In this document: in pieces, positions 18,775-59,268 of the stretch
Numbering within the stretch: the first letter of the stretch is position 1
Layout: the number at the start of each line of letters is the position of its first letter
DNA from: a bacterium
GTDB lineage: Bacteria > Bacillota > Clostridia > Oscillospirales > Oscillospiraceae
Assembly (NCBI GenBank): GCA_963632705.1
Contig: CAVGVB010000006.1
Span: 13,783-77,782 of the forward strand
Reading direction: 5' to 3'
DNA length: 64,000 nucleotides
Notes under the pieces: generated by a model
What the model was told of the DNA's origin: nothing
Database searches by the model: none
What the model saw: the letters and a program-made list of their open reading frames with translations, nothing else
Position numbers and translations under genes: made by a program

Positions 18775-18777
18775 GGC

Positions 18778-39765: not shown

Positions 39766-39794
39766 AAGAGCAATCCGTCATCGAGGTGATTGTA

Positions 39795-41072
39795 ATGGAC
39801 CATCCAGATTACAAACCCCGCGTAATCGACGCTAAGGTGGAGGAATACCTGTCCGCCTTTGGCGCTGCCTGCATTGAGGGGCCGAAATGGTGCGGCAAGA
39901 CATGGACTTCTTCTTACCACAGCAAAAGTGAGATCTATATTGGTAATCCCGCCAATAACTTTCAAAACCGTCAGTTGGCTGAATTGTCTCCCTCGCTGGT
40001 ACTAGAGGGTGAGGCACCGCGCTTGATCGATGAATGGCAGGAAGTTCCCGCGCTATGGGATGCTGTGCGATATAAAGTGGATCAGGTCTCAGAGAAAGGA
40101 CAGTTTATCTTGACCGGTTCCGCTACGCCCAATCACAAGGGTATCCTGCACAGCGGTGCCGGGCGCATCGCAAAGCTGAGGATGCGTCCGATGTCGCTGT
40201 ATGAGTCCGGTGATTCCAGCGGCAAGGTCTCTTTGGAAAAGCTGTGTCATGGCGAACTTACTCCTGCCATGACCGGTGATGTAGACCTCAAAAAGCTGAT
40301 CGAACTGATCCTCCGCGGCGGCTGGCCTGGAAGTCTCGGGCTACCGCTGGAACATGCAATGCTGCTTCCTGCGGAATACTTGAATGCCGTCATCGATGAT
40401 GATGTGTACCGCATTGATGGCGTAAAGCGTGATACGCAGAAAATGCGTTTGCTGCTGCGTTCGCTGGCGCGGAACGAGAGCACCACCGTCACGAATAAGA
40501 CCTTGATGAAAGATATTAAAGCTGTGGATGACGAGGACATTGACGGCAACACAGTAGCGGCCTACTTGGATATTTTCAAGCGGCTGTTCATCACGGATAA
40601 TCAACCACCGTTCTCTGCCGGTATTCGCTCATCCGTCCGAGTAAAACAGGCGGAAAAGCGACATTTCTCTGATCCATCGCTGGCCTGTGCGCTACTGAAG
40701 GCAACCCCTGACAGACTGTTGGGTGATCTGGAAACGCTCGGTTTTTTGTTTGAAGCTCTGTGTGAGAGGGATCTTCGTGTTTATGCGGAATCTTTCGGCG
40801 CAAATCTATACCACTATCAGGACTACAAGAATCAAGAGATAGACGCGGTAATTGAATTGCCGGATGGGCAATGGTGTGCCTTTGAGATCAAGTTGGGAGC
40901 TAACCAGATCGACGCTGCGGCAGCAAATCTTTTGGAGATAGAGAAACAGATCGCAGAAGACCCAAAAGGCAAGTCGCCTGCCGTGCTCTGCGTACTGTGC
41001 GGCATGGCGAATGCCGCTTACCAGCGACCGGATGGAGTTTTTGTCGTGCCGATTACGGCCTTGAAAAACTGA
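39795..41072 (+). CDS. AAA-family ATPase (AAA_14/DUF4143-like)
   Basis: Walker A-like GPKWCGKT and Walker B-like LIDEWQ. The C-terminal half resembles DUF4143 (...YHYQDYKNQEIDAVIE...). GAGGTGA precedes the ATG at 39795. Confidence 0.75.
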   Translation: MDHPDYKPRVIDAKVEEYLSAFGAACIEGPKWCGKTWTSSYHSKSEIYIGNPANNFQNRQLAELSPSLVLEGEAPRLIDEWQEVPALWDAVRYKVDQVSEKGQFILTGSATPNHKGILHSGAGRIAKLRMRPMSLYESGDSSGKVSLEKLCHGELTPAMTGDVDLKKLIELILRGGWPGSLGLPLEHAMLLPAEYLNAVIDDDVYRIDGVKRDTQKMRLLLRSLARNESTTVTNKTLMKDIKAVDDEDIDGNTVAAYLDIFKRLFITDNQPPFSAGIRSSVRVKQAEKRHFSDPSLACALLKATPDRLLGDLETLGFLFEALCERDLRVYAESFGANLYHYQDYKNQEIDAVIELPDGQWCAFEIKLGANQIDAAAANLLEIEKQIAEDPKGKSPAVLCVLCGMANAAYQRPDGVFVVPITALKN

Positions 41073-41086
41073 TTCTTCGGTTCTCA

Positions 41087-42247
41087 GCTGTAGTTCCATG
41101 GTAGTTTTCGGTATGGTATAATCGTCAGGAACAATGCGTCATTGTGGATTGCGTTGTAGTTCCCTGGTAGTTCTTGGTATGGTATAATACTTGTGATATA
41201 GTTGAACAAATCACCAAAGTTGTAGTTCCCTGGTAGTTCTTGGTATGGTATAATCTGCCCTGCAGCGACTTTGTCAGCTCGCCGGTTGTAGTTCCCTGGT
41301 AGTTCTTGGTATGGTATAATGCACGCCTCAGCCACATGATCCCGCATTCGGGTTGTAGTTCCCTGGTAGTTCTTGGTATGGTATAATGAGAGCTGACATT
41401 TGAAAAGCATAATTCTGGTTGTAGTTCCCTGGTAGTTCTTGGTATGGTATAATCTCTGGGACGGCAAGGCGTTTTTGTTCAAGGTTGTAGTTCCCTGGTA
41501 GTTCTTGGTATGGTATAATCGGACAGGGCAATGGCCCGGAAAGGAAAACGTTGTAGTTCCCTGGTAGTTCTTGGTATGGTATAATTGCCGCCAAACAGCG
41601 CGGCACATACGTCAAGTTGTAGTTCCCTGGTAGTTCTTGGTATGGTATAATTGGCATAGAATACACAAAGGGGCAAACGCGGTTGTAGTTCCCTGGTAGT
41701 TCTTGGTATGGTATAATTTCATATTTGCACCCCTTTCTATACTTCACAGTTGTAGTTCCCTGGTAGTTCTTGGTATGGTATAATAGACGAAAAAAAATCG
41801 TATGTCAAGTCAATGTTGTAGTTCCCTGGTAGTTCTTGGTATGGTATAATACGGGCGGATGAGCCGCCCACCCCAGAAGAGTTGTAGTTCCCTGGTAGTT
41901 CTTGGTATGGTATAATTTTCCCGTTGAGTTTCAGTGAGATACTGCGGTTGTAGTTCCCTGGTAGTTCTTGGTATGGTATAATGCTACCAAAAAATTCAAA
42001 GGAGCTGTAAACGTTGTAGTTCCCTGGTAGTTCTTGGTATGGTATAATATCTGAGCTCTGCGGAGATCTCTCAGCAAGGTTGTAGTTCCCTGGTAGTTCT
42101 TGGTATGGTATAATGTTCCCGACAGGTCGGTATCCACGTCTTCGGTTGTAGTTCCCTGGTAGTTCTTGGTATGGTATAATCTTAGAAGCCGCGTCACGGT
42201 CGGCGCGGCCCGTTGTAGTTCCCTGGTAGTTCTTGGTATGGTATAAT
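41087..42247 (+). CRISPR. type II-C CRISPR array, 18 repeats and 17 spacers
   Basis: 36-nt repeat GTTGTAGTTCCCTGGTAGTTCTTGGTATGGTATAAT with spacers of 30-31 nt. Repeats start at 41087 (degenerate, 4 mismatches), 41153, 41219, 41285, 41352, 41418, 41484, 41550, 41616, 41682, 41749, 41815, 41881, 41947, 42013, 42079, 42145 and 42212. The strand is given for the canonical GTTGTAG... orientation. Confidence 0.97.
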
Positions 42248-42256
42248 AGACTACCG

Positions 42257-42295
42257 AAAAAGTCGCTCAAGGCAATGCCTTGGGCGACTTTTTTC
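42257..42295. terminator. bidirectional terminator between the array and cas2
   Basis: aaaa-agtcgctcaagg-caat-gccttgggcgact-tttttt. Confidence 0.8.
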
Positions 42296-42616
42296 TCAAA
42301 AAATCGAGAGCTGTTCACACTGAAATGTATCATCGGCTTCTGATAATTTTCCCAAAAGCACGTCAATGGCTTCGTACTGCTTCTCCGTGATGACCATCAG
42401 GCGGATCGCGCCATTGGCCGGCAGATTTTGCTTGACCCGTTGACGATGCTTTTCCACGGCGTCCATGCCGTTGCAGACGCGGGCATAGACGGAATACTGA
42501 AGCATATGGTATCCGTCCATCAGCAAAAAGTTACGGAAGCGGGTAGCTTCCCGCCGCTGCGCCTTCGTCTTGACCGGCAGGTCGAAAAACACCAGGATCC
42601 TCATAAACTTATTCAT
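42296..42616 (-). CDS. cas2: CRISPR-associated endoribonuclease Cas2
   Basis: 106 aa. MRILVFFDLPVKTKAQRREATRFRNFL... Overlaps the end of cas1. Confidence 0.95.
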   Translation of the reverse strand: MNKFMRILVFFDLPVKTKAQRREATRFRNFLLMDGYHMLQYSVYARVCNGMDAVEKHRQRVKQNLPANGAIRLMVITEKQYEAIDVLLGKLSEADDTFQCEQLSIF

Positions 42617-43508
42617 AGCGGTGCTGCTCGGATTCCAGCAGCGTGGGCAGGGTAAGCTTCATTTCAGGCCGCTCCATAGCACGCCCCAGACTTTGTACCA
42701 GTCGCTCCACGGCATAGGCCACGCTGTGGTGCTGTCGTCCCGATAAGATATCCAGATTCAGGCAGTTGAACAGAAGCCGCTTTTGCGGCGGCGTCAATTC
42801 ATCTTCGGATGCAATGCTCCGCGACACCAGAAGATCGACGACCGGGCGAAACGGCTCAATCAGGTCATCCGCAAGGTTAAAGGCATTCAGCGTACTGCGA
42901 TGGTGCAGTCCCAGCGCAGGCAGGAAGCCGTACACTGCCAGATGGCGTGCAATGCAGCCTCGCAGGATCGCGTAGCCATAGTTCAATCCCGCGTTGATGC
43001 CGTTTTCCTCTCCACGGGTAAAGCCCTGCCCGAATAGCGCCGGAAAATAGAGCTGTGCGGCCGTGGCTTCCACATTTTCGCTGTCGCCGGAGCGCACGCG
43101 GTCGATCATCGCGCGAAGCGTATCCGCTTCCGCGGTGTGCTCTGTCAGCTGCAGGCATATGGCCTGATTCTCTATTTTAGCCTTGACGATGCTTTGCCAC
43201 AGGCGTTTTTTCGCCGGCTCGGTCATGCTCATCTGCATCCGCAGAACGGACAGTCCCCGACTGTGCTGCTGATACGGCGTCAGAACTGCGCAGGGCAGAT
43301 GCTTTTCATCGCAGGTAAAAACGGCGCAGCCGCGCTGTCCCAAGCGGGACAGCGCGGCTGTTGTAATGGTGGTCTGACGGCTTTCCAATAAAAGCGCGGA
43401 AATATCCTCAATGGGCACAGAGTGTTCACTGTCCGTGCGGACGATCAACTGCTCTCTCCGCAAGGAGAGAGCGGCGGGACTCTCAACAATAATATTCCGA
43501 AAAGCCAT
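42609..43508 (-). CDS. cas1: CRISPR-associated endonuclease Cas1 (type II)
   Basis: About 299 aa. AGTGAGGT precedes the ATG at 43508; the track start at 43514 is a TTG. Confidence 0.95.
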   Translation of the reverse strand: MAFRNIIVESPAALSLRREQLIVRTDSEHSVPIEDISALLLESRQTTITTAALSRLGQRGCAVFTCDEKHLPCAVLTPYQQHSRGLSVLRMQMSMTEPAKKRLWQSIVKAKIENQAICLQLTEHTAEADTLRAMIDRVRSGDSENVEATAAQLYFPALFGQGFTRGEENGINAGLNYGYAILRGCIARHLAVYGFLPALGLHHRSTLNAFNLADDLIEPFRPVVDLLVSRSIASEDELTPPQKRLLFNCLNLDILSGRQHHSVAYAVERLVQSLGRAMERPEMKLTLPTLLESEQHRYE

Positions 43509-43517
43509 ACTCAAACC

Positions 43518-46500
43518 TCACTTTCTGCAAAACGCCATGCGCGGCTCTTTCTCGACCTTGTGGTATTCGCCCAGTACATCCACGGTAAACTTTTCCAGAT
43601 TTTCCAGGGTTTTGATTCCCATACCGCCAATCTCGTAGGTATTGTCATGGTTACGGCAACCGATTGCGGCAGTATGGATATTCGCGCTGATGTAATACAG
43701 CATTTCCTGCTTTGCTTCGTAGGTGTCGGGAAGTGTGCTTTCCTTCTGCGCCTTTGTCAGCTTCAGCTTTGTCTTATGGGTCACACGGAGCAGATCATTG
43801 GGGTACAAGGAAAAGATAAAGTTCTTGTCGTCCATCTCCTTCCATTGTTCGTAGGGTTTATACGCCACACACGCCTTGTTGGGCAGCTCCTTTTTCAGCG
43901 TGTCAGCAATATAGATGGGTACAAAGTAATAGCCGTCGTTCTCCACATGGAACACATCGATACGCACCATGCTGTCGTTGTCCGCCACGCCTGTTCCCTT
44001 CAGAACGGAGACGTTCAGCGTCGTGGGTTCACACAGCTTGACCTTGTTGACGACAGGGCCGGGCGTACCGTCGCTTTTCGGCTTATGGAAAGGCTCGGCA
44101 AAAGCCTTGGCCCCGTTGCCGCCGTGCTTCTTTAATTGCTCCTTCAATGCCTCATAGAGCAGACGGTCACTCTGCGGCATATAGTAGTTGGCGATCTCGC
44201 CGGTCTTGGGGTCAAGCTTCAGGTCGGTCAACGCGCGCTTCACGACCACAACGCCGTCCTTCAGCGCCTTGGGACTCTTGACCGTCTCCTTGTGTGCCGC
44301 ACCTGTCACCTTGCGGCGGGGCATACGGGATACAAAGAGCTTCCGCACCGGAATATCGCCGTTGGCATACACAGGGAATCGCTGGGAGATCACAGCGCGG
44401 CGGGGATCCTCACCCAGACGGGCCTCCAACTCTCTGCGGAACTCCGGCCAGGGATAGGGGAACTGCCTCAGTACTTCGCCGGTATATTGGGAAACCGCCA
44501 TGCTGCCAGACTCTGTCTGCACATACTCGCATTCCCGCAGCGCGGCATAACGGCTCACCTGCTGGATCATTCCGTCTGTTGTGCAGGCGATCACCAGCGC
44601 GTCTACCGCGTGGTGCAGATCCCCGTTTTCGCGGATCTTGGTAATGCCCCAGCGCTTGCGCATATAGGAGGTGACAGCGCCGTTGACGGCCGTCACATGC
44701 TTCTTTCGCCCGCTGGCAAAATCGGCAAATTCCAGATGGTCGCTGATATAGTTCAGAAGGAAGCGGGACATGGTTTTGGTGTCCTGCAAATTCCGCTCCT
44801 TGAACTTCTTTTCGTCCTCAGTGGTAATGGTCTCCTTCAGCAGCCGCTGTTTTTTTCTGAAATCGCGGATGCTGCTCTCCACCCAGACAATGAAATCCTC
44901 CCGCCGCTTGCCCTGCAAATATTGCAGCGGCAGGCGGTTGCTCTTGTTGCGGTTTTCCTCCGTGAATACCAGCACCTTGTTTTTATAGCCATCGTCAAAG
45001 GAGATGCTGTACGGAATGATATGATCCACCTCCACATACCCCGGCTCAAAGAGCCGCTCAATGGAGATATGCCTTTGGGAATACGCGCACTCGCCGTGCT
45101 GCTCCTCCCACAGCTTGAATTTCACCAGATCCTGTCCCGTGGGGCATTCCTTGCCGTATTCCGTGCGGATGCGCTCCATGAGCCGCTCATTGCGGGCGCG
45201 GTTTTCGTCCATATCTCTTTTCATCTTGCTGCGCTCCGCGAAGTCGCGGGCCATTTCCCGTGCCAGCTCAATGTTGATAAAGGTCGGACTGCTGCCGCGT
45301 TCACGGATAATGGCGTTAAGGACTTTCACCGTTTGCGAGATTGCGCGCCGCACAACAGGGCTTGTCACATCCGCGAAATCCTCCTCCGTAGGGTGGAGAA
45401 GGCGTGTTCGTGTTTCACCGTCATGTCCCTTGAAATCATATCCCGCAGCGGCGCAGGCCTCGTCGTACTTCATTCCTTTTTCCAGAAAAGGGATCAGCTT
45501 ATCGCAGGCCTTTACGGAAAGGTGGCCGAACTTGCTGAAGCTCATCGTCTCGGCAATGTCGATCTCCATCTCTGACAGGCCGACCGCAGCCAAACGAGGA
45601 CGGATATTGACGGAAGTCTTGTACGTGGAGAGAACGCGTCCCAGCTCATTTTTCTGCTGGCGGGTCAGCCCGTCAAAATGGCTTTTGGAAAGCTTGTTGA
45701 AAGCCGCACGCATTTGGTGATAGGCTCTGAGATAGCAGAACTTTGTTTTCTTTTCCGCCTCCTCATAGTCCTCCGCATTCTTATAGGACACCACATTAAA
45801 CGTCGTACCTGCGGGGATTCCCAGCTCCTTGCGAATACGGGAGAAATTCAGGTCCTTCGTCTTATGTGCCAGCGCGATAAGCGCCTCCCGCTGTGCGCCG
45901 GAAAGCGGACTGCTTTCGCCGCTGCACATCAGCCGCAGGTGGTTGACATTCTGAAGCAGCGCAAAATACTCAAAGGAATAGCTGGCCTTTGCCGCACGCG
46001 GCTCTCCCGCCTCCAACGTACACTTGCCGATCATCTTCTCAATCTGACTCCCTCCATAGGGGCTGCCCTGTCCGGGGCCTTCGTCAAAGGAGCGCTGGCT
46101 CAGGAGTATTTCCAGATATTGCTCCTCCAGTTCCGCCGCCGCGAAAGTCTGTCCCTGTTCGCGCTGGGCCTTGAAGATGGCGCGGACTTCTTCCTCTACC
46201 ATGTCCCGTCCCACGGTCGAAAGGTATTTGCCGCCTTTGTTCCGCTTATTGGCGCTGTACTGCGGGTCTTTCAGCAGCATTTCGCCCACTGTGCGGTAGC
46301 CCTTTTCGGACATGAGCGCACGGTTGGCCGTTACGGCGGCAAGCAGCTCGCCATCCTCCTTCAATGTGCCGGACTTGCGGTTGGACTTGAAACCGCGCCG
46401 CTGCGCGATATGCAGAAGAATACGGGAAAATTCGGTGTTGGACACCGGGGTGTCCAGTGCCTTGACGCGCAGCGCGTAAATATCCTCCAGCTTTCCTTCG

Positions 46501-46781
46501 AAAAGGGTATCCAGCTCCGCTTGAGATACTACCTTTTCCACTATAAGAAGGCGGCGGATGCGTTCTAGGCGATGTTGGTGTCGACGCAGACGGCGGCGCG
46601 CACTTCTGGCTTCCCGCCGGGGTGCGGCCAAAGAATCGCCTGTTTTCGGCTGCTCGGCGGCATCAAAAACGCGGGAGCCCATGTTGATGATGCCGAAAGG
46701 CCTGTCCTCTCCATCCAGAGCGACGACCGCCCAGCCTACCGATGCAATACCAATGTCAAAACCGATAGCGTAGGGATACAT
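43518..46781 (-). CDS. cas9: Cas9, type II-C
   Basis: 1087 aa. RuvC-I motif GFDIGIASVGWAV, an arginine-rich bridge helix, and the HNH motif VEVDHIIPYSISFDDGYKNKVLV...NRNKSNR. No csn2 or cas4 is present in the locus. Confidence 0.97.
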   Translation of the reverse strand: MYPYAIGFDIGIASVGWAVVALDGEDRPFGIINMGSRVFDAAEQPKTGDSLAAPRREARSARRRLRRHQHRLERIRRLLIVEKVVSQAELDTLFEGKLEDIYALRVKALDTPVSNTEFSRILLHIAQRRGFKSNRKSGTLKEDGELLAAVTANRALMSEKGYRTVGEMLLKDPQYSANKRNKGGKYLSTVGRDMVEEEVRAIFKAQREQGQTFAAAELEEQYLEILLSQRSFDEGPGQGSPYGGSQIEKMIGKCTLEAGEPRAAKASYSFEYFALLQNVNHLRLMCSGESSPLSGAQREALIALAHKTKDLNFSRIRKELGIPAGTTFNVVSYKNAEDYEEAEKKTKFCYLRAYHQMRAAFNKLSKSHFDGLTRQQKNELGRVLSTYKTSVNIRPRLAAVGLSEMEIDIAETMSFSKFGHLSVKACDKLIPFLEKGMKYDEACAAAGYDFKGHDGETRTRLLHPTEEDFADVTSPVVRRAISQTVKVLNAIIRERGSSPTFINIELAREMARDFAERSKMKRDMDENRARNERLMERIRTEYGKECPTGQDLVKFKLWEEQHGECAYSQRHISIERLFEPGYVEVDHIIPYSISFDDGYKNKVLVFTEENRNKSNRLPLQYLQGKRREDFIVWVESSIRDFRKKQRLLKETITTEDEKKFKERNLQDTKTMSRFLLNYISDHLEFADFASGRKKHVTAVNGAVTSYMRKRWGITKIRENGDLHHAVDALVIACTTDGMIQQVSRYAALRECEYVQTESGSMAVSQYTGEVLRQFPYPWPEFRRELEARLGEDPRRAVISQRFPVYANGDIPVRKLFVSRMPRRKVTGAAHKETVKSPKALKDGVVVVKRALTDLKLDPKTGEIANYYMPQSDRLLYEALKEQLKKHGGNGAKAFAEPFHKPKSDGTPGPVVNKVKLCEPTTLNVSVLKGTGVADNDSMVRIDVFHVENDGYYFVPIYIADTLKKELPNKACVAYKPYEQWKEMDDKNFIFSLYPNDLLRVTHKTKLKLTKAQKESTLPDTYEAKQEMLYYISANIHTAAIGCRNHDNTYEIGGMGIKTLENLEKFTVDVLGEYHKVEKEPRMAFCRK

Positions 46782-46802
46782 AGCATGTCCTCCTCATACT
46801 CC

Positions 46803-46902
46803 CGGATAGAGATAACGCCCCGCTTACGCGAGGCGTTAGAGCTCTGCGGTGTACTACCTTATCATAGTAACCTGCATAGTTCTTGGTATGGTATAAAGAA
46901 CT
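46803..46902 (-). ncRNA. predicted tracrRNA
   Basis: Positions 46877-46896 are identical on the plus strand to repeat positions 16-35, so minus-strand RNA is complementary to the crRNA. Positions 46861-46876 pair with repeat positions 1-15 through G-U wobbles and a 2-nt internal bulge. An AAGG nexus follows, then the hairpin AACGCCUC-GCGUAAGC-GGGGCGUU (46837-46814). The ends are approximate. Confidence 0.7.
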
Positions 46903-46908
46903 ATAACC

Positions 46909-46937
46909 AATATAGCATGAATTTTAACGAATTGCAA
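46909..46937 (-). promoter_or_regulatory. promoter for the tracrRNA
   Basis: On the minus strand: TTGCAA (46937-46932), 17 bp, TATATT (46914-46909). Confidence 0.5.
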
Positions 46938-46958
46938 GGGCTTTGTATATTTTTCTGC

Positions 46959-47225
46959 TTATTCTGCGGATAACATCTCCGTCGGGAACTGCCGCCCGGT
47001 ATGGTCGATGGTGTAGTCTCCCGTCAGGATCAGCTGGCTGATGGGCACCACGGTGTAGCCGTCGTTGATGAGGTATTCCAAAATGCGTGGCAGCGCCTCT
47101 GGCGTGTGCAGCGCCGCGTTGTGGAACAGCACGATGCTGCCCGGCTGCACCCTGGACGTCACCCGCTGATAGATGGTGTCGGCATCGTAGTCCTTCCAGT
47201 CCAGGGAGTCCCTATCGGCAATGGC
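46959..47225 (-). pseudogene. 3' fragment of a polysaccharide deacetylase gene (copy 2)
   Basis: ...DSLDWKDYDADTIYQRVTSRVQPGSIVLFHNAALHTPEALPRILEYLINDGYTVVPISQLI... is a paralogue of copy 1 and is likewise 5'-truncated. Confidence 0.7.
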
Positions 47226-47363
47226 TTGAAGCCATTGCGGCGCAAGGGTTTGCGGGTTTGACTGAAATGCGCATCAGGCAAAAAATTGACCTGTAAATGG
47301 GGCGCTTGAGGAGTGTTTCAGGCGCGGGAGAGGTCAAATACGAGGGGGTGTGCGCGGGGGGAG
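46987..47363. repeat. 377-bp direct repeat, right copy (DR-R)
   Basis: See DR-L. Confidence 0.9.
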
Positions 47364-47391
47364 GTGGTTGAAAGGAATTGCGTCCGAATGA

Positions 47392-47420
47392 GAAAAGTGT
47401 GCAATCATTGCACACTTTTC
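47392..47420. repeat. palindromic hairpin family AAGTGTGCAATCATTGCACACTT, copy 1
   Basis: gaaaagtgtgcaatcattgcacacttttc. The same 23-bp core recurs at 54268-54293 and 63834-63856. Confidence 0.9.
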
Positions 47421-47446
47421 CTTGCAGACAGCTTTTGAGATAAAGC

Positions 47447-47476
47447 AAAGCACGGAGTCAAAAGGCTCCGTGCTTT
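47447..47476 (-). terminator. terminator of the flavin reductase gene
   Basis: aaagcacggag...ctccgtgcttt, with a T-rich tail on the minus strand. Confidence 0.75.
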
Positions 47477-47480
47477 ACGC

Positions 47481-48041
47481 TTATTTCAGTTTTTTGCCGT
47501 CCTCAAAGGCGTTGCCGACTTTCTCGCCAAGGACGAGGTAGTCGTTGTGCACAGGGTCAAAGGTGATCGGCTGCAGCTTCTGCGGGTCGATCTTCCCTTC
47601 CTTGTCCAGAATGCGTTCGTCGGCGGAGACGTTCACGATCGCGCCCAGCAACAGCTCAGACTCCTCGTCAAAGCTGATCAGTTTGCACTCCAGCGTCATG
47701 GGCAGTTCGTCGATAACCGGTGCGTCCACCACCTCGCTCTTGGTCACATGGAATCCGGCGCGCGCCATCTTATCCGGCGTTGTATTGCCGGAGACAATGC
47801 CCACATAGCCGCAGGCGTCCACATGGGCCGCGTCCGCCATGCTGACGGTAAATGCCTTGTGGTTCAGGATGTTTTTCACCGTTTTGTGGCTGCCGCTGAG
47901 GTACATGGCGATGCGGTTCATGTCCGCGATACCGCCCCAAGCGGCATTCATGGCGTCTGGAGTACCATCCTCGCCGTAGGTCGCGATGATCAAAACGGGC
48001 TGAGGGTACAGCCCGGGCTTTGCTCCAAAATTCTTACGCAT
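47481..48041 (-). CDS. flavin reductase-like (FMN-binding split-barrel) protein
   Basis: AGGAGG, then the ATG at 48041. MRKNFGAKPGLYPQPVLIIATYGEDGTPDAMNAAWGG... Confidence 0.8.
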   Translation of the reverse strand: MRKNFGAKPGLYPQPVLIIATYGEDGTPDAMNAAWGGIADMNRIAMYLSGSHKTVKNILNHKAFTVSMADAAHVDACGYVGIVSGNTTPDKMARAGFHVTKSEVVDAPVIDELPMTLECKLISFDEESELLLGAIVNVSADERILDKEGKIDPQKLQPITFDPVHNDYLVLGEKVGNAFEDGKKLK

Positions 48042-48187
48042 AGTTCCGTCCTCCTGCTTCAAGATTATACTACCCTCATGAGGGAAGAAAGAGAAAGACT
48101 TAGTAAAATCCGCATTTAGTTATTCTTTATTTTGCTTTTCTATATTTGGTTGTGGGGGGGCCTGTCCAGGTTTTCCCAAGACAGGTT

Positions 48188-48571
48188 TTACTGTTTTAGA
48201 AAAGCGCGTTTAAGTGCGGCACCGGCATTTTCAGCCTGAATGGGATTTTCCCGTTTAGGTGGTTTCGGCTTCCTGGGGCTGCTCCAAAATGGTATATTCG
48301 ATGCCGGCCAGCGTACCTCTGCGCGGCATTCCCTCTCCCTATCCCGCACCGCTGCGCAGATGCGGGCCAGTCCTTTCGTGGTGGAGTTCCAATCCTCCGG
48401 CAGTGACAACATTAGGGACAGCAGCCCTTTCACCTTCAGTGACCGCGACTTATCCCGCAGATGGTGATTTGACTGACGGTATAGTTCTGCGTTTTTCTCC
48501 ACCTTGAATACAGCTATGGGCGTTCCCCCTTTCTTAAAATACATTTTGTAAGTTAAAAAGCATAACATCAC
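48188..48571 (-). pseudogene. degenerate helix-turn-helix gene typical of Firmicutes mobile elements
   Basis: The N-terminal part ...LRDKSRSLKVKGLLSLMLSLPEDWNSTTKGLARIC resembles a family I recall from conjugative and integrative elements. The remainder is frame-scrambled and Arg/Pro-rich. Confidence 0.4.
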
Positions 48572-48592
48572 TCAAGCCAAAAGAAATTCCAG

Positions 48593-48621
48593 TTGATGAA
48601 ATGAGCAATATTTGATATAAT
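48593..48621 (+). promoter_or_regulatory. strong sigma-A-type promoter about 280 nt upstream of the HEPN-like gene
   Basis: TTGATG (48593-48598), 17 bp, TATAAT (48616-48621). Confidence 0.55.
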
Positions 48622-48902
48622 GAGTATTGATAAGGCTTTACGCGAAGTGATGAAAGATAACGCAAAAATCTTTTTAAAATTACCTGCACAAACCTTGGTT
48701 ATGCCTCTAACATTACCAAGCCGATAGGCAATCTGTTGCCCATCAACAAGTCATTTGCAGACTCAATGCTATGGTGTATAAAGCGCATTTTTACCATTCA
48801 CGACTCACTTGCTATTGAGCAAAATAATTAATAAATATCTCGAAGACTGATATTGGGTATCGAATAAACTGATAACCACGCTTTACAAAAAGGAGGCTGT
48901 TT

Positions 48903-50669
48903 ATGAAGTATAGCATACCAAGACAAAGCAATCATAATCTAGAATCTGATGGAATAGTATTTTTTGCACAGCGATTGGAGGAAATGCTAGCGGATAGTGC
49001 GGTAGACTTATATAAGATGCCCCTTTTGAATACGCAAAGTTTAGCTTCAGAATACTGTAAAGTTTCAGAAGACGTAACTTCTGGATTACTTAAAGAGCAC
49101 TACAGAACCGCTGTATATGAAGAATTTATTTCTTCCTTCAAAAACGATATTGTTCTTAAGGAAAATTGGGGCAAGGATAATATCGAACGTGTAATAAAAT
49201 CCTTTGGATCTAGTAATCAAAAGACTAAGAACAACATTATCGCGTATATCGATGCAACTTTGGATAATGGTAAATACTTAAACTGGACAAAAGATACTAT
49301 TCTTAAGTATACAAATCTCCCTAAGGAAAAATCAAAAATCGAGGCATTATTAAGGTGTTTCTTACCGGAACTTATTATGTGGGGATATGATCCTGAATTT
49401 ATAGCTGTTACTCTCAATACCCACTTTTTTAGAGGCGCTATCATAAGCAATGACACCGTAAAGAGTTTTTTAGATGTCTTTGACTTGAAAGTCCATGAGT
49501 ATAAAGTGTATTTTTCTGTCTCGACAATCGCCCAAAATTTCAAGACAATCCTTGAGAAAAGATTGCATGTTCACTTTGAAGATGATGGGAATTTTAACTC
49601 TTTTAAGCATGACCGCAATAAAATTGTCATATATTTTGATGGGATCAGAGCGCGTTGTCCAAATACCGCGGCAAAAAGAGCATACAGCTATCTAGACATG
49701 TTTTTTAGTTTTTATAAGTATGTAGGCAATAAGAGAAGCCTTCCTTTGCAAAATAGGGCAATGGTAATTGAAAAAAACACTAGGCCTGTTTTTGTCGGCG
49801 CAAAAAAACAATCCTTTGCCATTATTGAAGATATCAATTATACAGAAATTGGCGAGCAGTCCGATTTCCTTATTACAGGGTTGCTAAACAATGCAGAGAA
49901 TGAATACTCTATGCTTAGCAAAGCTATTGAACTACATAATACTGCCCTCGCTGTTTCCGATTTGAAAAGTGGTTTTTTGAACCTATGGTCAGCCATGGAA
50001 ATCCTTTCGCAAGAACAAGGCTCGGATAGTAAACTTGGCCCTGTACTTGCGTTGGTTATTCCGATTTTGAAAAAAGAATATATTTCAACGCAAATCCGTG
50101 AATTAAACAAAGCAATTAAAGATAATCTATCGCCGGAGGATTATCAGCGCATATATGAACAAATTGCCATTGAAGGTTGTGAAACCAAAAAAACATTTTA
50201 TTTGATATACTTGGATAAATATGCAACTATACGTAATGAATTATTCGAGAAATTGAGTGCTGTGCCTCTTTTGAGGAGTCGAATACACTTACTGTCAAGC
50301 GCTTCTACAACGAAAAAACTAAACACCATGATCACTGCATACAGTCAAAGGATTACATGGCATATGTATCGTATGTACCGAACAAGAAATGCTATTGCTC
50401 ATTCTGGCGATGTTCCGAATAATTTGAAATATCTTGGAGAGCATCTTCGCTCCTATCTAGATTCGACAACAAACGAGTTTGCTGTAAAATTGTCCGGAGA
50501 AATCCCTTTTAGCTCAAGAGAAGATATTATCACGGATTTGAAATTTGCATTATCTAGACTTGAGAGCTTCCTCGAAAAAGATATTCCCATAAACGAAGAG
50601 GTAATCAATGTACTACTACATCCTGAAATCAGTTATACTATGAATTGCGAAAAACATACTCAGCTATAG
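48903..50669 (+). CDS. 588-aa protein with a C-terminal HEPN-like Rx4H motif (Abi-like candidate)
   Basis: AAGGAGG RBS. The gene is AT-rich (about 36-40% GC) against a 60% GC background. The C-terminal alpha-helical region contains ...ITWHMYRMYRTRNAIAHSG (R-N-A-I-A-H at 50385-50402). The N-terminal 330 aa or so have no motif I recognise. Confidence 0.7.
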   Translation: MKYSIPRQSNHNLESDGIVFFAQRLEEMLADSAVDLYKMPLLNTQSLASEYCKVSEDVTSGLLKEHYRTAVYEEFISSFKNDIVLKENWGKDNIERVIKSFGSSNQKTKNNIIAYIDATLDNGKYLNWTKDTILKYTNLPKEKSKIEALLRCFLPELIMWGYDPEFIAVTLNTHFFRGAIISNDTVKSFLDVFDLKVHEYKVYFSVSTIAQNFKTILEKRLHVHFEDDGNFNSFKHDRNKIVIYFDGIRARCPNTAAKRAYSYLDMFFSFYKYVGNKRSLPLQNRAMVIEKNTRPVFVGAKKQSFAIIEDINYTEIGEQSDFLITGLLNNAENEYSMLSKAIELHNTALAVSDLKSGFLNLWSAMEILSQEQGSDSKLGPVLALVIPILKKEYISTQIRELNKAIKDNLSPEDYQRIYEQIAIEGCETKKTFYLIYLDKYATIRNELFEKLSAVPLLRSRIHLLSSASTTKKLNTMITAYSQRITWHMYRMYRTRNAIAHSGDVPNNLKYLGEHLRSYLDSTTNEFAVKLSGEIPFSSREDIITDLKFALSRLESFLEKDIPINEEVINVLLHPEISYTMNCEKHTQL

Positions 50670-50722
50670 TATTTTTGAATGGATATTTACTGCCCTGGAG
50701 TTTTTTCATTTAACACTATACT

Positions 50723-50770
50723 CGAAGCCCGGAATGCCAAAATTTTGGTTTTCCGGGCTTCGTTATATTT
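50723..50770 (+). terminator. intrinsic terminator
   Basis: cgaagcccggaa-(16 nt)-ttccgggcttcg followed by a T-rich tail. Confidence 0.75.
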
Positions 50771-50896
50771 CTGCTATGTACTACGCTACTCGTCCCTTAT
50801 GGAAACAGCAGGTATGTTACTGCCTAATGCACAACTGGGTTTCTAGACAGACTGGGTCGGCGCAGGGGATTGAACTGCGCCGGCTTCTTACATTTA

Positions 50897-52366
50897 TTAT
50901 TTATCATTTTTCTTCAGATACCGTACTTTCTTCACTGCTTCCCAATGCATCGCCTCTGCGTTGATCGGTGGCAAAGTGTCACCCCAGGGAACGGGAGCGT
51001 CAGCCATTTTTACCTCAACCGGCAATCCACCGAAGGGGCGCACGGCATTCGGAGTGGAGATACTCACAGAAGCATTTGGACTACCCTCAAAATGCAGATG
51101 TAATTTTTGACCATACACGGCTGACTCCCAGGGAATCCTGATCATACCCTGTCCGCGGCCTTCCTGTGCTACGATACCGTCACCTACGATGAGCTGAGGA
51201 AAATGAAGTTCGTAGAGTTTTTTGCAAAAGGGTGCTTTGTCCAGCTTTTGCGCAATGCGCCATAGGCGATCCATATTACGGCTGTACTCAATGCACTTTT
51301 TCGCACCATCCTTGCCGGAGATCCTGTGGCCGAAAATGTATTCTTTCTCCTCCAGCGACATATCTGTACACGCCTGGAGTACCGTCGCAAAATTCCGACG
51401 CAATATCCGCATGGGCGGGTGCGAATCCGATGGCGTAAAATTATCAGGCTCGTCGAGCAAGAAAAAGCCTAACTGCTCGCTGGAAACGCCAAATTCCTTC
51501 AACAATTTGAAAGCAAAATTTGAATAATCAGGCCCGCGGCATGGCGTTTTAAACTCATTTCCAAAGCAGACGATGGGTAACTCCCCGATATCCTTGTTCG
51601 CGCCCATACTCTGCTGCACAAATTTTTTCCGCTTCTGCAGAGCACCCTCGATTTCAATGTGAACGGGAACGCACCGTAGCGCGTTTTTTGTTTTCACCTG
51701 CTTGCTGTACATCAATTTATCATTCAAAATTTCGTCAATTTTCAGGTAATGCCGGTCTGGATGATCTGGGAACGAGCGAAAATCGTTCCACCGCAGTCCA
51801 CGGCACTCCGCGGGGCGCATGCCAGTGTACAATGAGATCAAAATGCCGCAGAAGCGCCCGTCCTCCAGTGCATGTTCCGCCGCATATAGCGCCAGACGTC
51901 CCTGCTGCCCAATTGTCAAGGCCCGCGGGCAACTATCGTTCAGCTCCGCGTTTGCCTCTGCCGGGGCTAAGATCCTCTGCATCATCAAAGTCGTAAGATT
52001 ATTCGACTTATCTCCTGCACGATTTTTTGAAAGGATGTTGTAAGCATGTCCGCATGTAGCGGCGTAGGAAAAGACGTCCCGCAATGACGAGATGATCGTC
52101 TTAACGGTCGCTTCTTGGTATTTGCATTCCTTAGCGACTTTAGAGACAGCGAGCAGAATATTTGCCGGAGTAATTTCGGAGATTGACATATCTAGATGGC
52201 CTGCAACCTTTTTGATGTAGTCATCGTATTGGCGAAGTGTCGTACAGGTTTCAAAACTGTATTGATCTCCCGCCTGGATCGCCCAGTGGCGATCTTTTGC
52301 GATAGAAATGCAGTGTTTTTTCCGGTAGCTCTTAAGGCTCAAATCTCCATCAGTCTTAGATTTCAT
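50897..52366 (-). CDS. tyrosine recombinase-like protein with a C-terminal extension of about 130 aa
   Basis: 489 aa. Arg-I in LYTGMRPAECRGLRW, a beta-hairpin Lys in KTKNALRCVPV, ILRRNFATVL (the R of HxxR is kept, the H is replaced by R), FGHR, and Tyr in CIEYS. Confidence 0.7.
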   Translation of the reverse strand: MKSKTDGDLSLKSYRKKHCISIAKDRHWAIQAGDQYSFETCTTLRQYDDYIKKVAGHLDMSISEITPANILLAVSKVAKECKYQEATVKTIISSLRDVFSYAATCGHAYNILSKNRAGDKSNNLTTLMMQRILAPAEANAELNDSCPRALTIGQQGRLALYAAEHALEDGRFCGILISLYTGMRPAECRGLRWNDFRSFPDHPDRHYLKIDEILNDKLMYSKQVKTKNALRCVPVHIEIEGALQKRKKFVQQSMGANKDIGELPIVCFGNEFKTPCRGPDYSNFAFKLLKEFGVSSEQLGFFLLDEPDNFTPSDSHPPMRILRRNFATVLQACTDMSLEEKEYIFGHRISGKDGAKKCIEYSRNMDRLWRIAQKLDKAPFCKKLYELHFPQLIVGDGIVAQEGRGQGMIRIPWESAVYGQKLHLHFEGSPNASVSISTPNAVRPFGGLPVEVKMADAPVPWGDTLPPINAEAMHWEAVKKVRYLKKNDK

Positions 52367-52367
52367 A

Positions 52368-53863
52368 TTAAGTCACCTTTGATTTTAGTTTTGCCGTGAA
52401 GAACATATTATCGTTTGATTTGATGCAAAGTAGTAAATCGCTTCCAGCTTCAAAATTGTGTTCTGAAATGCCGTCTATGTCGATTATGACATCACCACTG
52501 AAGCGACAGTTCGGGGTGGAGGTCATCACAGCATCTTCGTCTTTGCGGCTAATCTTGAACTCGGATACATCGTAGGGTGTTTCTGTCAAAGATATGGCGT
52601 ATTTATCCAGTATTGCGGCCAGCTTCGCCAACTCCCGCGGATCGTCAAAAGCGCAATAATTCCGCGCAAATACGCTCTCAGGTGCGTTGCCACACAAATA
52701 GTGAATTTCCTCTTCGTCACATCCGCAAGAATCCAGCGTCGATCTGAAAGTGGCTCTTAAAGTTCGTTCTGGATTCTTTGTCAAACTCTTTAGCTCCGGC
52801 TGTTTTGAGAAATCGAAGCTCTTGAAAAATCCTTTTAACCACCGATCAAACTCATCCGGACGCATTCTACGCGCCGCATTTTTGGGACTACGAATGAATG
52901 GCATATCCTCCTGTATGCATTGTGCGTTATCTTTTACCTTTCGGTAAAACGTTGCCACCGTCGGCGGCAGTGGCAACGTCCGCCGACGCGGCCAATTTAG
53001 CGCTTCAAGTCGATACACCTCACCTGTATGCTTTGCTTCTGCTGCAATTTCAATAATAATGATTCCTGTATAGGTGTTTGAGAAAGAAAATGCCCCCACG
53101 TCAGTGCGCATAGCTCACTGATCGTGATGCCTGTAGTCAACATCAAGATAAGGCCAAAATATAGGTAGCCCCGGCTGCTTTCAAGGTTCTCGGCGCAGGT
53201 TGCGACGATTTCCCGCACCTGAGCGTGAGTCAAGATGTTTTTCTCGAAATGCCTGCTCGCATCCCGCGGCCCAACAACTACGCGGCGGTTTCCCATGGCG
53301 AACGTGTCCACGAAATGGCTTGAGATCAAACATTGGGTCTCCTCGTATATAACCAATGCCCTCATAGCGTAGATCTGACCATTAATCTGATAGTCAGAAT
53401 AGCCTCCCTCGCGCAAATGTAAAGCAAATTTTTCTTGCGTAATTTCACAAAAAGGTATCCGGTCAAATTTGCTTACAAGCAGTTCAAATGAACGCATATA
53501 TGCTTTTTTCGTGGACGTTGACCACTTCATATACTGGGCGACCCAATCAAAGTCCGCTGCGATCAACGCGGCCAACGGCAGACTCTGAGCAAACTTTTTC
53601 CGTAACGAACATCCCGCTTTTGTATCGGGATCAAAGGCGCGCTGGAGGCATTCGGGAACCAGCGTGCGCACATACTCCTCCAGTCCAATTGCATCAGGTG
53701 CGCGGAAAATGTGTGCCTTGTGTTCATAGCAAACGCGCCCTGCACCATCGATGTGCACACCATCGCTAGAACGCAAGGAAAGAAATACTGTAGGACCCGC
53801 TTTACGCGCCTCTACGCGGTAGGTGATAGTTACGCCAAAGAAATCGATGCTGTTAAGCTTCAT
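52368..53863 (-). pseudogene. second tyrosine recombinase-like gene, frameshifted and with degenerate catalytic residues
   Basis: The track ORFs 52997-53863 and 52368-53111 overlap in different frames. Joining them near GGGGG/TTTTC (about 53075-53095) gives ...TTGITISELCALTWG(H/A)FSFSNTYTGIIIIEIAAEAKHTGEVYRL... Arg-I is replaced by Thr and LGH by CGN, while Tyr is kept (ARNY). The stop lies 1 nt before the downstream ATG. Confidence 0.6.
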
Positions 53864-53885
53864 ATATTAACCCTCATGCGGCACA

Positions 53886-54008
53886 GTGGCCGGAGGGGAG
53901 GTATTAAATTATTATCATCATCTTGGTGTCATTCTCCTTTCAAGCGAGTAATCGTACTCTCGCATATATTATTATAGTCTCTTCAGCGGCTCCCTCCCCT
54001 CCGTCCAC
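53886..54008. repeat. 16-bp inverted repeats flanking a 91-bp AT-rich spacer next to the recombinase start
   Basis: GTGGCCGGAGGGGAGG (53886-53901) against CCTCCCCTCCGTCCAC (53993-54008). 15 of 16 positions are complementary. Confidence 0.6.
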
Positions 54009-54260: not shown

Positions 54261-54300
54261 AAAAAATAAAGTGTGCAATCATTGCACACTTTATTTTTAT
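54261..54300. repeat. palindromic hairpin family, copy 2 (terminator-like)
   Basis: aaaaaataaagtgtgcaatcattgcacactttatttttat, about 30 nt downstream of the stop of the 840-aa gene. Confidence 0.9.
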
Positions 54301-56871: not shown

Positions 56872-59268
56872 TTAAGATACAATGTTCATCAATTCGGCAA
56901 AGCTATCAACGACAGAGTATGTTACGCTCTCGCTGCTGATCGCGGCAAAGTGCGCTTTTGCACAGGCGATTTTTGCGTTTTCCACGCCGCGCAGTTCGGC
57001 AGCATCACTGTTGCCCTTCGTTTCGACGATGAAGTAGATATGTTTGACGCTGCCTTCATTGAAAGCGATCGCCCAGTCCGGATTATACTTGCCGACAGGT
57101 GTGGAGATGAAAAATCCGCCTGGCAGCTTCACGTATACCGCGACCTTCGCATTGACATCCAATTCACCGGCAAACTGTTTCTCGTTCTCGGAGTCGTAGA
57201 TAATGTGGCTGTACAGGCTGCGATTTGCCTCCATTGCATTCAAGCCAAGTTTACCACGAAGATTGGCGCTGGTAAAGATGTCTGTGTCGTAAGCCGCATC
57301 CAGCTTGTTATAGGTAATGTGTTCAATGATCTGTGTAGCCATCTGGTCATTGATGATTTTTGCTGTTTTCAGAATGAACTCCTCCGGATTCAGGCGGAAC
57401 ATGGCAAACTTCTGCGAGGCCATGCGCTGCAGGATCGCTGCAATCGTTGCGCGGGTCAACTTTGTCTCCTCCACCAGCTTTCCAATGAGGTCATAGCGGA
57501 CACTGCCCAACGGTGCGGTTTTGGGTGCCTCCTGGTCGGAGAGCGTCCTGCGGAAGCCGTGGCCCTGTTCCAGTTGCTCCTTGGAGTCCAAATGCGCGGC
57601 TTGTTCGCCGTACTCCAATTTGACCGTCACTGTGGTCACATTCAGCTTTTCATCCAGCATTTGCACAGCGTTCTCAATGAGCTTTTCCTTATCAAACCGC
57701 ACAGTATAGAAGGACTTGTGATTGATACGATTCCAGAGCTCCACAAATTCCTTCTTGTGCAGCTTTTCCGGGTCAATACGCGCTTCCACATTGTTGCCGT
57801 GAGCATCTTCCGGACGCATGGAGTGACTGTCGTAGATAGAAGACAGCACTTGCACCACTGCGGCGGTGCAATCCTTGACTTCCTCCGCCACCTGCACTGT
57901 ACCGCTGGCCTTGTCGGCATAATACTTATCCGTCAGTTCGCCGCGCTTGACATAGCCGTTGCTGACAAGGTCTTCGTAGATAGCCGTAGCCAGCTCCGGC
58001 GTGACCTTGACTTCGCTGCCGTTGGCATCGGTAAGGACTTTACCAAGGAACAACTGCGTATCGACCTTCTTAGGCCGGTCAGCCAAGGATTCCGCCAAGC
58101 CGGATTGCAGCGCCTCCGCGAACTTGCCGAACTCCATGTCGGTGATCAACGTCAGCTTATTCAGTTCCTGCACCTCGCTGCCCAGCACGCTTTCGTCCAT
58201 ACGTTCGCCCTGCTGATCAACGCACAGCCGCAGACCGCGCCCGATCTCCTGTCGGCTGCGGATGTCGGAGTCACTCTGCTTTTTCAGCGTACATATCTGG
58301 AAGACATTGGGGTTGTCCCAACCCTCCCGCAGCGCGGAGTGGGAGAAAATGAATCGCACCGGCTCGTCGAGACTCAACAGCCTCTCTTTGTCCTTCATAA
58401 TGAGGTCGTAGGCGTCCGCGTCATCGGAAGTCTGCGTCTTACGGTCAACTTTACTCTCCACAAAGCGGGCTTTCTTGCCCTTCTTCTTGTCGATGGAAAA
58501 GTAGCCCTGGTGGGTCGTCCTGGCGCTGAGCTTGTCCAGATAGCGGAGATAGGACTCGTCGCCGATTTTCCGCTGCAGCTCACTTACAACGCTGTTGTAC
58601 TCCTCCTCAAACATCTGAGCGTACTCGCCGTTGCGGCCTGTGTCGTCATCGCCGTCATAGCTGCGGTATTTGGACACCTCGTCAATGAAAAACAGGCTCA
58701 ATACCTTAATGCCCTTACGGTAGGCGGCGCTTTCCGGGGCATCGATCTCGTTGATCATGCTGAACATGTTGCCGCCGCGCTCACAACCCAAGTCGGCACG
58801 AGTAAATCCGTTGACAGGCGCAAAGGCGCAGGGAGCAGCGTTTTCCACTGTCATAAATCCGGGCATTAGCTCAGAAGTCACGTTGGACTTAAATAACGCT
58901 TTTCTCCGTACCCACTCCGCACACTCGCGGGAGATGGCTTTTTGCGTGAACTCATTGCGAAGCCGTATTTCAAATTCGCTTCCATACAGCGTTTTTTCAC
59001 GGTTCAGGCGAGGAATGTAGAATTCTCTCTGCGCCTTTTCCGGCTGCTCCGCCAAAAAGGTCGGGGATGTGAAAATAAACCGCAGGGCGTCTATACCTTC
59101 CAGCTGAGTTTTTAACTCTTCAAAGGCATAGACAGAAAAACACGCCGCTGCGATCGAGAGCTTGCTGCCGGGCTCCAGCTTTTCTTTTAACTCGTCTGAG
59201 AGCTTGTCCGTAATATTGTTGATGATCTTCATAACCCCACCTGCACTTTGCATTTTATCTTTAGTCAT
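56872..59268 (-). CDS. Res-like helicase C-lobe plus PD-(D/E)xK nuclease, with an unrelated N-terminal domain and no ATPase N-lobe
   Basis: 798 aa. Helicase motifs IV-VI are present (VRFIFSHSALREGWDNPNVFQICTL...RQEIGRGLRL), as is a C-terminal nuclease motif (YNPDWAIAF...IYFIVETKG). There is no Walker A or DExH anywhere. Residues 1-190 or so resemble the N-terminal domain of a different defence-helicase family. An alternative start is at 59232 (MKIINN...). Confidence 0.7.
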   Translation of the reverse strand: MTKDKMQSAGGVMKIINNITDKLSDELKEKLEPGSKLSIAAACFSVYAFEELKTQLEGIDALRFIFTSPTFLAEQPEKAQREFYIPRLNREKTLYGSEFEIRLRNEFTQKAISRECAEWVRRKALFKSNVTSELMPGFMTVENAAPCAFAPVNGFTRADLGCERGGNMFSMINEIDAPESAAYRKGIKVLSLFFIDEVSKYRSYDGDDDTGRNGEYAQMFEEEYNSVVSELQRKIGDESYLRYLDKLSARTTHQGYFSIDKKKGKKARFVESKVDRKTQTSDDADAYDLIMKDKERLLSLDEPVRFIFSHSALREGWDNPNVFQICTLKKQSDSDIRSRQEIGRGLRLCVDQQGERMDESVLGSEVQELNKLTLITDMEFGKFAEALQSGLAESLADRPKKVDTQLFLGKVLTDANGSEVKVTPELATAIYEDLVSNGYVKRGELTDKYYADKASGTVQVAEEVKDCTAAVVQVLSSIYDSHSMRPEDAHGNNVEARIDPEKLHKKEFVELWNRINHKSFYTVRFDKEKLIENAVQMLDEKLNVTTVTVKLEYGEQAAHLDSKEQLEQGHGFRRTLSDQEAPKTAPLGSVRYDLIGKLVEETKLTRATIAAILQRMASQKFAMFRLNPEEFILKTAKIINDQMATQIIEHITYNKLDAAYDTDIFTSANLRGKLGLNAMEANRSLYSHIIYDSENEKQFAGELDVNAKVAVYVKLPGGFFISTPVGKYNPDWAIAFNEGSVKHIYFIVETKGNSDAAELRGVENAKIACAKAHFAAISSESVTYSVVDSFAELMNIVS

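Follow-up and report, generated by a model that had tools for sequence, protein, structure and literature searches.

The gene on the plus strand at positions 48903-50669 of a 64,000-nucleotide stretch of DNA from an Oscillospiraceae bacterium (GenBank assembly GCA_963632705.1, contig CAVGVB010000006.1, positions 13,783 to 77,782; this whole stretch is referred to below as the window, and all unlabelled coordinates are positions within it) encodes a protein of 588 amino acids (aa), read from an ATG start to a stop codon within these coordinates. Comparison of sequences suggests, with a probability of roughly 85%, that it belongs, as a divergent representative from gut Clostridia, to ApeA, an established single-gene system of defence against phages whose product is a ligand-gated HEPN ribonuclease. 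ApeA was described as a single-gene HEPN defence system by Gao et al. 2020, and in 2026 cryo-electron microscopy structures followed, together with a mechanism (Juozapaitis et al., bioRxiv 10.64898/2026.01.26.701840). The type of system and its mechanism are hence already known; what is new is a divergent member, from a poorly annotated clade whose pocket differs from that of Ec2ApeA, one of the Escherichia coli representatives of the family.

When the protein alone was searched against the sequences of the Protein Data Bank (PDB) with phmmer, it matched Ec2ApeA (9hxb_A, 9hxi and others) at an E value of 2.9e-36, with aa 7-532 aligned to residues 7-538 of 593, followed by Ec3ApeA (4.7e-32), Ec4ApeA (6.5e-7) and Ec1ApeA (6.6e-6). 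A profile built from 53 homologues, with identities down to 30%, aligns nearly end to end, positions 1-574 corresponding to residues 1-583, and gives E values of 2.4e-75 for Ec3ApeA and 3.6e-75 for Ec2ApeA, as well as 2.2e-21 for Ec4ApeA and 6.1e-17 for Ec1ApeA (positions 20-533). An earlier note on this DNA, made without database searches, had put the gene forward as an undescribed abortive-infection or defence gene, and it is the word 'undescribed' that these full-length matches contradict. The only family matched in PADLOC is likewise ApeA, at an E value of 1.6e-7, although this match is weak and partial, covering aa 333-523 and positions 356-549 of the 601 in the model. The same model matches 21 of the 53 clade members at E<=0.01, the best of them at 8.3e-10.

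The alignment also extends over the N-terminal 330 or so residues, to which the earlier note could assign nothing and which correspond to the N-terminal and Mid domains of Ec2ApeA. A full-length AlphaFold2 model (mean predicted local distance difference test score, pLDDT, 90.3; predicted template modelling score, pTM, 0.89) consists of helices at aa 16-191, an alpha/beta region at 198-299 and further helices at 313-572, a three-part layout in agreement with the published Ec2ApeA boundaries of 1-198, 199-309 and 335-583. The first part is an all-helical N-terminal domain from aa 1 to approximately 195 (48903-49487, plus strand), which aligns with Ec2ApeA 1-198 and from which the predicted ligand pocket receives Y37, P40, E74, E147 and R151; of these, E74 and P40 do not vary within the clade. 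The Mid alpha/beta domain follows at approximately aa 196-310 (49488-49832, plus strand; aligned with Ec2ApeA 199-309), with strands modelled at 198-207, 240-250, 282-290 and 296-299 and helices at 208-221 and 253-275. The HEPN_ApeA domain, at approximately aa 313-588 (49839-50666, plus strand; aligned with Ec2ApeA 335-583), is a helical HEPN core with insertions, which carries the predicted pocket residues Y393, Y480, R483, H487, H514 and Y518 and which, when modelled alone, reaches a pLDDT of 89.7. By homology to Ec2ApeA, the protein would adopt a HEPN fold.

The recognition of an R-x4-H motif of the HEPN type in this C-terminal region, already made in the earlier note, is upheld by the comparison with Ec2ApeA. 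The motif YRMYRTRNAIAHSG, at aa 489-502, holds R495, N496 and H500, and its catalytic R-N-x3-H portion (R495 N496 A I A H500; 50385-50402, plus strand) lies at the C-terminal end of a long helix spanning aa 470-501. These three residues align with the catalytic R502, N503 and H507 of Ec2ApeA and are invariant in 53 of 53 homologues; in Ec2ApeA, the R502A mutation abolishes defence (Juozapaitis et al.). The pocket of Ec2ApeA binds 5'-phosphorylated deoxydinucleotides, termed pdNG (Juozapaitis et al.). At seven of the 15 positions listed for this pocket the present protein has the identical residue, namely Y37, E74, R151 (R152 in Ec2ApeA), Y393 (Y401), R483 (R490), H514 (H521) and Y518 (Y525); E74, which reads the guanine in Ec2ApeA, is invariant in the clade, as are Y393, R483, H514 and Y518, while R151 and Y37 are conserved without being invariant. 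The side chain is a different one at six positions, and both of the positions that make main-chain contacts (I41 and M42) differ too.

Several observations weigh against the assignment to ApeA, or against extending to this protein all that is known of the family. The identity to Ec2ApeA is just 24% over the 517 aligned positions of the phmmer alignment. Searches of the protein against Pfam, NCBIfam and PHROGs returned no significant match, the sole Pfam line, MauJ (E=0.031), being judged to be noise, and the Pfam family HEPN_Apea is matched at E<=1 by only five of the 53 clade members, all under threshold (best 0.017) and this protein not among them. Foldseek comparison of both the full-length and the C-terminal model with the PDB gave no match at E<0.1, in a library from which the ApeA coordinates are apparently absent. 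This null result neither confirms nor refutes the HEPN fold, because the 9hx* ApeA entries are missing from the matches and because the published assignment itself called for an aligner of greater sensitivity, GT-align having been required to link HEPN_ApeA to HepT (Juozapaitis et al.). Within the pocket, R148 of Ec2ApeA is replaced by E in 51 of 53 homologues, Q494 by H in all 53, H487 by Y in 50 and S40 by P in all 53; T36 is replaced by L or I, and Y469 is variable in the clade. The regulatory-loop residues of Ec2ApeA (R334, R336 and K337) and those of its inter-dimer or ring interface are not conserved. Furthermore, family members do not all behave alike, as Thr1ApeA is a dimer that gives no protection in E. 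coli, and Ec1ApeA is able to act non-abortively on RNA-phage genomes.

Judging from these alignments, the catalytic machinery and the floor of the pocket follow the family pattern, from which the entrance of the pocket departs, as do the details of allostery and oligomerisation. The replacements in the pocket, along with the unconserved interface and loop residues, imply that the identity of the ligand, the formation of rings and the mode of allostery cannot simply be carried over from Ec2ApeA. As the clade-fixed replacements fall at residues that hold the 5' nucleotide or line the pocket entrance, with the floor of the pocket kept, a different activator can be proposed; the altered entrance makes it plausible, as a tentative suggestion, that the gut-Clostridia clade is gated by something other than the pdNG deoxydinucleotides of Ec2ApeA. 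If this were the case, the clade would bring to light a second small molecule, derived from infection, that acts as a signal for a HEPN defence protein, in genes that are borne by the mobile elements of human-gut anaerobes and escape present annotation pipelines. The pocket substitutions specific to its clade also make this protein a reasonable one in which to look for a second ApeA activator.

The mechanism published for ApeA comprises cleavage of tRNA anticodons, abortive infection, assembly into decamers or dodecamers and activation by pdNG in the pocket (Juozapaitis et al.). By analogy, the 588-aa protein would dimerise through its C-terminal HEPN_ApeA domain, such that two R495-N496-x3-H500 motifs form one composite ribonuclease site, and the dimers would probably build a ring. 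The enzyme may remain inactive until a small, nucleotide-type ligand derived from infection fills the pocket between the N-terminal and HEPN domains, for which Y37, E74, R151, Y393, R483, H487, H514 and Y518 are the predicted lining. Once activated, it would cut the anticodon loops of tRNA, thereby halting translation and aborting the infection. Oligomerisation, ligand gating, the tRNA target and the abortive outcome are accordingly all predictions from the family. The gene itself is carried in an AT-rich cassette that is complete in itself, and this cassette has recently been exchanged into a defence hotspot that varies between strains and adjoins a CRISPR-Cas9 module.

The most serious alternative retains the assignment to the family, but has the protein acting in the manner of Ec1ApeA (PDB 9hxn), the ApeA that Gao et al. 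2020 first described: its pocket would sense an RNA structure or a ligand that is not a dinucleotide, and it would cut the RNA of the invader non-abortively. Ec1ApeA, a single-gene defence of the same family, has a HEPN Rx4-6H motif and a conserved sensing pocket, in which D509 takes the place of R490 of Ec2ApeA and R483 of this protein. It is not activated by deoxydinucleotides, and can cleave the genomes of single-stranded RNA phages, a setting in which its action is non-abortive. A different trigger is also plausible in that positions which sandwich the 5' base in Ec2ApeA have changed in the clade (R148 to E, with Y469 variable). However, the protein is far closer to Ec2ApeA and Ec3ApeA (approximately 1e-75) than to Ec1ApeA (6e-17), and five residues that in Ec2ApeA make contact with pdNG, at its guanine, phosphate and sugar, have all been kept (E74, R483, Y393, H514 and Y518). 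An Ec1ApeA-like mode of action is hence considered unlikely.

A considerably less probable alternative is that the gene is an addiction or stabilisation toxin of a carrier mobile element, such that the leaky toxicity of a HEPN ribonuclease selects for retention of the cassette. Such a role would suit the invariable location of the homologues on conjugative elements or prophages, often near ParA/ParB genes, and the toxicity of over-expressed Ec2ApeA, which acts through an endogenous ligand. It fits poorly with the absence of any recurring antitoxin-like neighbour in eight homologue contexts, with the position of the cassette in the window outside any intact mobile element, with the anti-phage phenotypes demonstrated for related ApeA proteins, and with the occupation of the same site in sister strains by other defence genes. 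Finally, there is next to no chance that the gene represents a new HEPN family of abortive-infection genes, hitherto undescribed and with a sensor of unknown kind at its N-terminus, for which the lack of a significant Pfam, NCBIfam or PHROGs match and the labelling of all named homologues as 'hypothetical protein' might be cited, given the end-to-end homology to four solved ApeA proteins at E values down to approximately 1e-75, the catalytic and pocket residues in common with ApeA, and the identical order of domains.

Membership of ApeA also agrees with the overall architecture. Like Ec2ApeA and Ec3ApeA (E. coli; PDB 9hxb, 9hxi and 9hxj), the gene stands alone and encodes a single protein of approximately 590 aa that aligns from end to end, has the N-terminal domain, the Mid domain and HEPN_ApeA in the same order, and carries the catalytic R-N-x3-H in the same helix. 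It differs from them not only by its low identity and by the pocket changes R148E, Q494H, H487Y, S40P and T36L, which are fixed or nearly fixed in the clade, but also in its host, a gut bacterium of approximately 58% GC, and in having its closest relatives mainly in Clostridia rather than in Enterobacteria. With the minimal HEPN toxin HepT (of HepT/MntA) and the HEPN anticodon nucleases PrrC and RloC it would share the Rx4-6H motif, an active site formed by a dimer and a tRNA target (Anantharaman et al. 2013, PMC3710099). By contrast with these, it has no antitoxin or ATPase partner, and its HEPN core contains large insertions and is fused to an N-terminal and a Mid domain, together approximately 310 residues long, which form the predicted pocket; neither the PDB sequence search nor Foldseek produced a direct match between any of them and this protein.

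The gene seemed unassignable because Pfam, NCBIfam and PHROGs are silent on it and the PADLOC match is weak and partial. Those of its homologues in the databases that bear any name are labelled 'hypothetical protein', and most bear none. Searching with tblastn gave no match among the genomes of isolated phages and eight weak matches among plasmids, all of them again labelled 'hypothetical protein'. Clostridial genus names do not occur in the supplements of either of the two ApeA preprints, a result that is uninformative. Among cluster representatives at 50% identity, the 53-homologue profile nevertheless identifies 2371 at E<=1e-3, 1720 at E<=1e-10 and 721 at E<=1e-30, mostly full-length proteins of 570-600 aa. 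In species-representative genomes, the closer relatives belong mainly to Clostridia of the gut and rumen (Anaerobutyricum hallii, Ruminococcus flavefaciens, Oscillospiraceae, Acutalibacteraceae, Christensenellaceae and Desulfosporosinus); Prevotella, Synergistaceae and Fibrobacter provide outliers, and Proteobacteria harbour relatives that are more distant. As the clade is without a Pfam or NCBIfam label and is only weakly seen by PADLOC, censuses of defence systems probably undercount ApeA in gut and rumen Clostridia and in other anaerobes.

In the eight homologue contexts surveyed the gene is a lone one with no recurring adjacent gene, and the settings are conjugative elements, prophages and inovirus-like units. 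One homologue adjoins ParA/ParB genes and a sortase-pilus cluster (P0010) and another ParB_N and ArdA genes (P0095). Two are associated with conjugative elements, the first at the edge of the element, beside a gene of the tRNA-U5-methyltransferase type that is followed by DarA_C, ClpP and TraG genes (P0053), and the second within it, with ParB/DUF6664 on one side and primase, relaxase and TraG on the other (P0062). Prophages house two more, one at the end of the prophage and adjoining serine recombinases (P0046), the other between the terminase module and the replication module (P0089). In Paludicola, the gene is flanked by two inovirus-like Zot/Rep_trans units (P0077). There is similarly no co-oriented neighbour or partner gene beside the 588-aa open reading frame (ORF) in the window, and together with the homology to ApeA this supports the claim of the earlier note that the gene is a stand-alone defence or abortive-infection gene.

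The expression signals proposed for the gene are of uneven quality. A Shine-Dalgarno sequence, AAAGGAGG, is present at 48890-48897, 7 nt before the ATG. The ORF itself is no chance feature, since stop codons are common in DNA of 36% GC and it runs for 1.77 kb. A candidate promoter on the plus strand at 48593-48621 (TTGATG, a 17-nt spacer and TG-TATAAT, an extended -10) has 10 of 12 consensus matches and is the top-scoring site in 48100-51000. The match noted earlier is thus a good one, but nine such sites are observed in the AT-rich stretch against 8.3 expected from shuffled sequence, and as this count is at the level of chance, the function of 48593-48621 as a promoter can only be suggested from its resemblance to the consensus. 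Between this site and the gene lies a putative AT-rich leader or spacer of 281 nt (48622-48902, plus strand; 35.3% GC) that includes AAAGGAGG. In homologous loci, too, the gene is preceded by a spacer (approximately 290-390 nt). The description of the stretch in the window as an unusually long 5' untranslated region of about 280 nt depends on a length deduced from the position of the putative promoter. A role for this leader as a regulatory RNA was dropped from consideration: the segment has no Rfam match and no surplus of folding (z -0.21), and its sequence is not conserved among homologous loci. Downstream of the gene, a terminator-like inverted repeat with 20-nt arms followed by UUAUAUUU is located at 50723-50770 on the plus strand. 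The hairpin is strong (stem 50723-50762; dG -30.7 kcal/mol, z -7.2), but the terminator is not as clean as had been claimed, as the U-tract after the stem (UUAUAUUU) is interrupted and a rule-based terminator scan of the region called no site here.

The base composition delimits a smaller unit than the 5.7-kb AT-rich block originally described. A GC content of 31-41% is restricted to approximately 48.50-50.80 kb, within which the ApeA-family gene has 35.7%, while the mean for the window is 57.7% and the three recombinase-like ORFs that had been included in the block are at 46-49%. The AT-rich unit is therefore a cassette of approximately 2.3 kb with one gene. In 25 of 25 loci of the clade (L003-L058), the ApeA-family gene is 4-25 GC points below its flanks, even where those flanks belong to the gene's own carrier, a conjugative element or a prophage. 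This implies that low GC is a family-wide trait, which alone is no proof of recent arrival in this genome.

The case for recent acquisition, which had been argued from the GC content, is instead provided by a related metagenome scaffold (L060) that is colinear with the window over 47102-53899. Identity to this scaffold is 85% in the left flank and 93.5% in a flavin reductase gene, then rises to 98.8-99.5% across a helix-turn-helix (HTH)-like remnant, the spacer upstream of the gene and the ApeA-family gene itself, before falling to 90% just beyond the hairpin and to 87-93% in the recombinase genes. The block from 47900 to 50760 is in this way 97-100% identical between two sequences whose flanks are 85-93% identical. 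An identity of approximately 99% in the cassette, set against that of its flanks, implies that the block of approximately 47.9-50.75 kb is much younger than its surroundings, and is direct evidence for its recent exchange. Two Logan contigs that encode the identical protein (L001 and L002) are short, and break at 48015 and 48037 on one side and at 50904 and 50957 on the other. The HTH-like remnant is a degenerate ORF on the minus strand (48188-48571) that travels with the cassette, being 99.5% identical in L060 like the ApeA-family gene and unlike the flanks. It has no Pfam match, and its N-terminus looks, by visual similarity only, like what is left of a mobile-element helix-turn-helix gene; a kinship with the DUF6017 protein of a sister locus was considered and rejected, the two being unrelated.

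The site into which the cassette has been exchanged is a real hotspot of strain-variable defence genes. Eight contigs from human-gut metagenomes encode the same flavin reductase (94-97% aa identity), and the block they have in common with the window extends only over 47391-48066. Three of the eight (L064, L066 and L067) also have the pair of recombinase genes found beyond the cassette in the window (83-90% identity), with 7-8.5 kb of different cargo between. This cargo includes, in L066 (2080-6495), a C5 DNA methyltransferase (PADLOC MTase_II, 3.9e-85), an 819-aa double-GHKL ATPase and a 308-aa protein and, in L064 (2867-6579), an OLD-like ATPase-Toprim protein (1e-37) and a 414-aa protein; the 819-aa, 308-aa and 414-aa proteins are without clear assignment. 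A further contig, L061 (1925-2956 and 5385-6449), has a WYL-domain regulator at this site and, across the flavin reductase gene from it, a SoFic-type Fic protein (6.9e-33). No homologue of ApeA was found in any of 80 flavin-reductase loci. The locus is thus a clean natural example of defence-cassette turnover, in which one site holds ApeA, or a methyltransferase and a GHKL ATPase, or an OLD-like nuclease. This cargo in sister strains, together with the recombinases and a cas9 gene 2.1 kb away, bears out the defence-island context that had been proposed, and does so more strongly than could be seen from the window by itself.

A FAA_hydrolase gene (284 aa) adjoins the flavin reductase gene in L061, L064 and L066, and is absent from the corresponding position in the window (48063-48187), which suggests that a housekeeping-type neighbour was lost when the ApeA cassette arrived. 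Past the opposite end of the cassette, the minus strand at 50897-53863 carries the two tyrosine-recombinase-like genes, one of 489 aa, with weak matches to Phage_int_SAM and Phage_integrase. The second is split in the window into overlapping ORFs of 288 and 247 aa and is intact in L060, where it encodes 498 aa; the split reflects either a frameshift or an error of assembly. The recombinases of the pair are divergent, of approximately 490-500 aa each, and are kept beside the variable defence cargo in sister strains.

Beyond the flavin reductase gene, as seen from the cassette, lies a type II CRISPR-Cas9 module (39655-46986), comprising an array, cas1, cas9, an anti-repeat and a gene for a DUF4143/AAA_14 ATPase. 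The array, at 41087-42260, has 18 repeats, and cas9 (43518-46781, minus strand) encodes HNH_4, RuvC_III, Cas9_RuvC and Cas9_a domains. The module is bracketed by a 379-bp direct repeat (39278-39654 and 46987-47363; 85.5% identity), which corresponds to the 3' end of a polysaccharide-deacetylase-like ORF. The sister contig L061 is without the module, running from the deacetylase fragment directly into sequence that corresponds to the window at 39.5 kb. As L061 crosses the junction in this way, the CRISPR-Cas9 module (approximately 39.65-46.99 kb) is a strain-specific insertion.

An exact 25-nt palindrome, AAAGTGTGCAATCATTGCACACTTT (dG -17.3 kcal/mol), occurs at 47394-47418, 54268-54292 and 63833-63857, where zero copies would be expected by chance. 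Every sister contig has a single copy, situated downstream of the flavin reductase gene at the exact point where similarity to the window stops. The first two copies in the window were considered as the attachment-site duplication of a 6.9-kb island, and this was rejected in view of the third copy at 63833, the unrelated flanks and the single copy in sister loci. The palindrome could be a terminator that has come to serve as a site of recombination, or else a REP-like element at the boundaries of segments. The segment bounded by its last two copies contains a 798-aa ORF on the minus strand (56872-59268) whose only Pfam match is a restriction-endonuclease domain at the C-terminus (RE_endonuc, 8.8e-34) and which may be a truncated restriction-type enzyme, and close to it a large serine recombinase gene on the plus strand (60579-62045); this segment may be a second acquired island. 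At the other end of the window, 9271-23442 is occupied by very long plus-strand ORFs of 3167 and 1554 aa. These contain internal repeats of 695 bp (19831-20525 and 20782-21476; 98.6% identity), and probably represent a giant repetitive surface protein.

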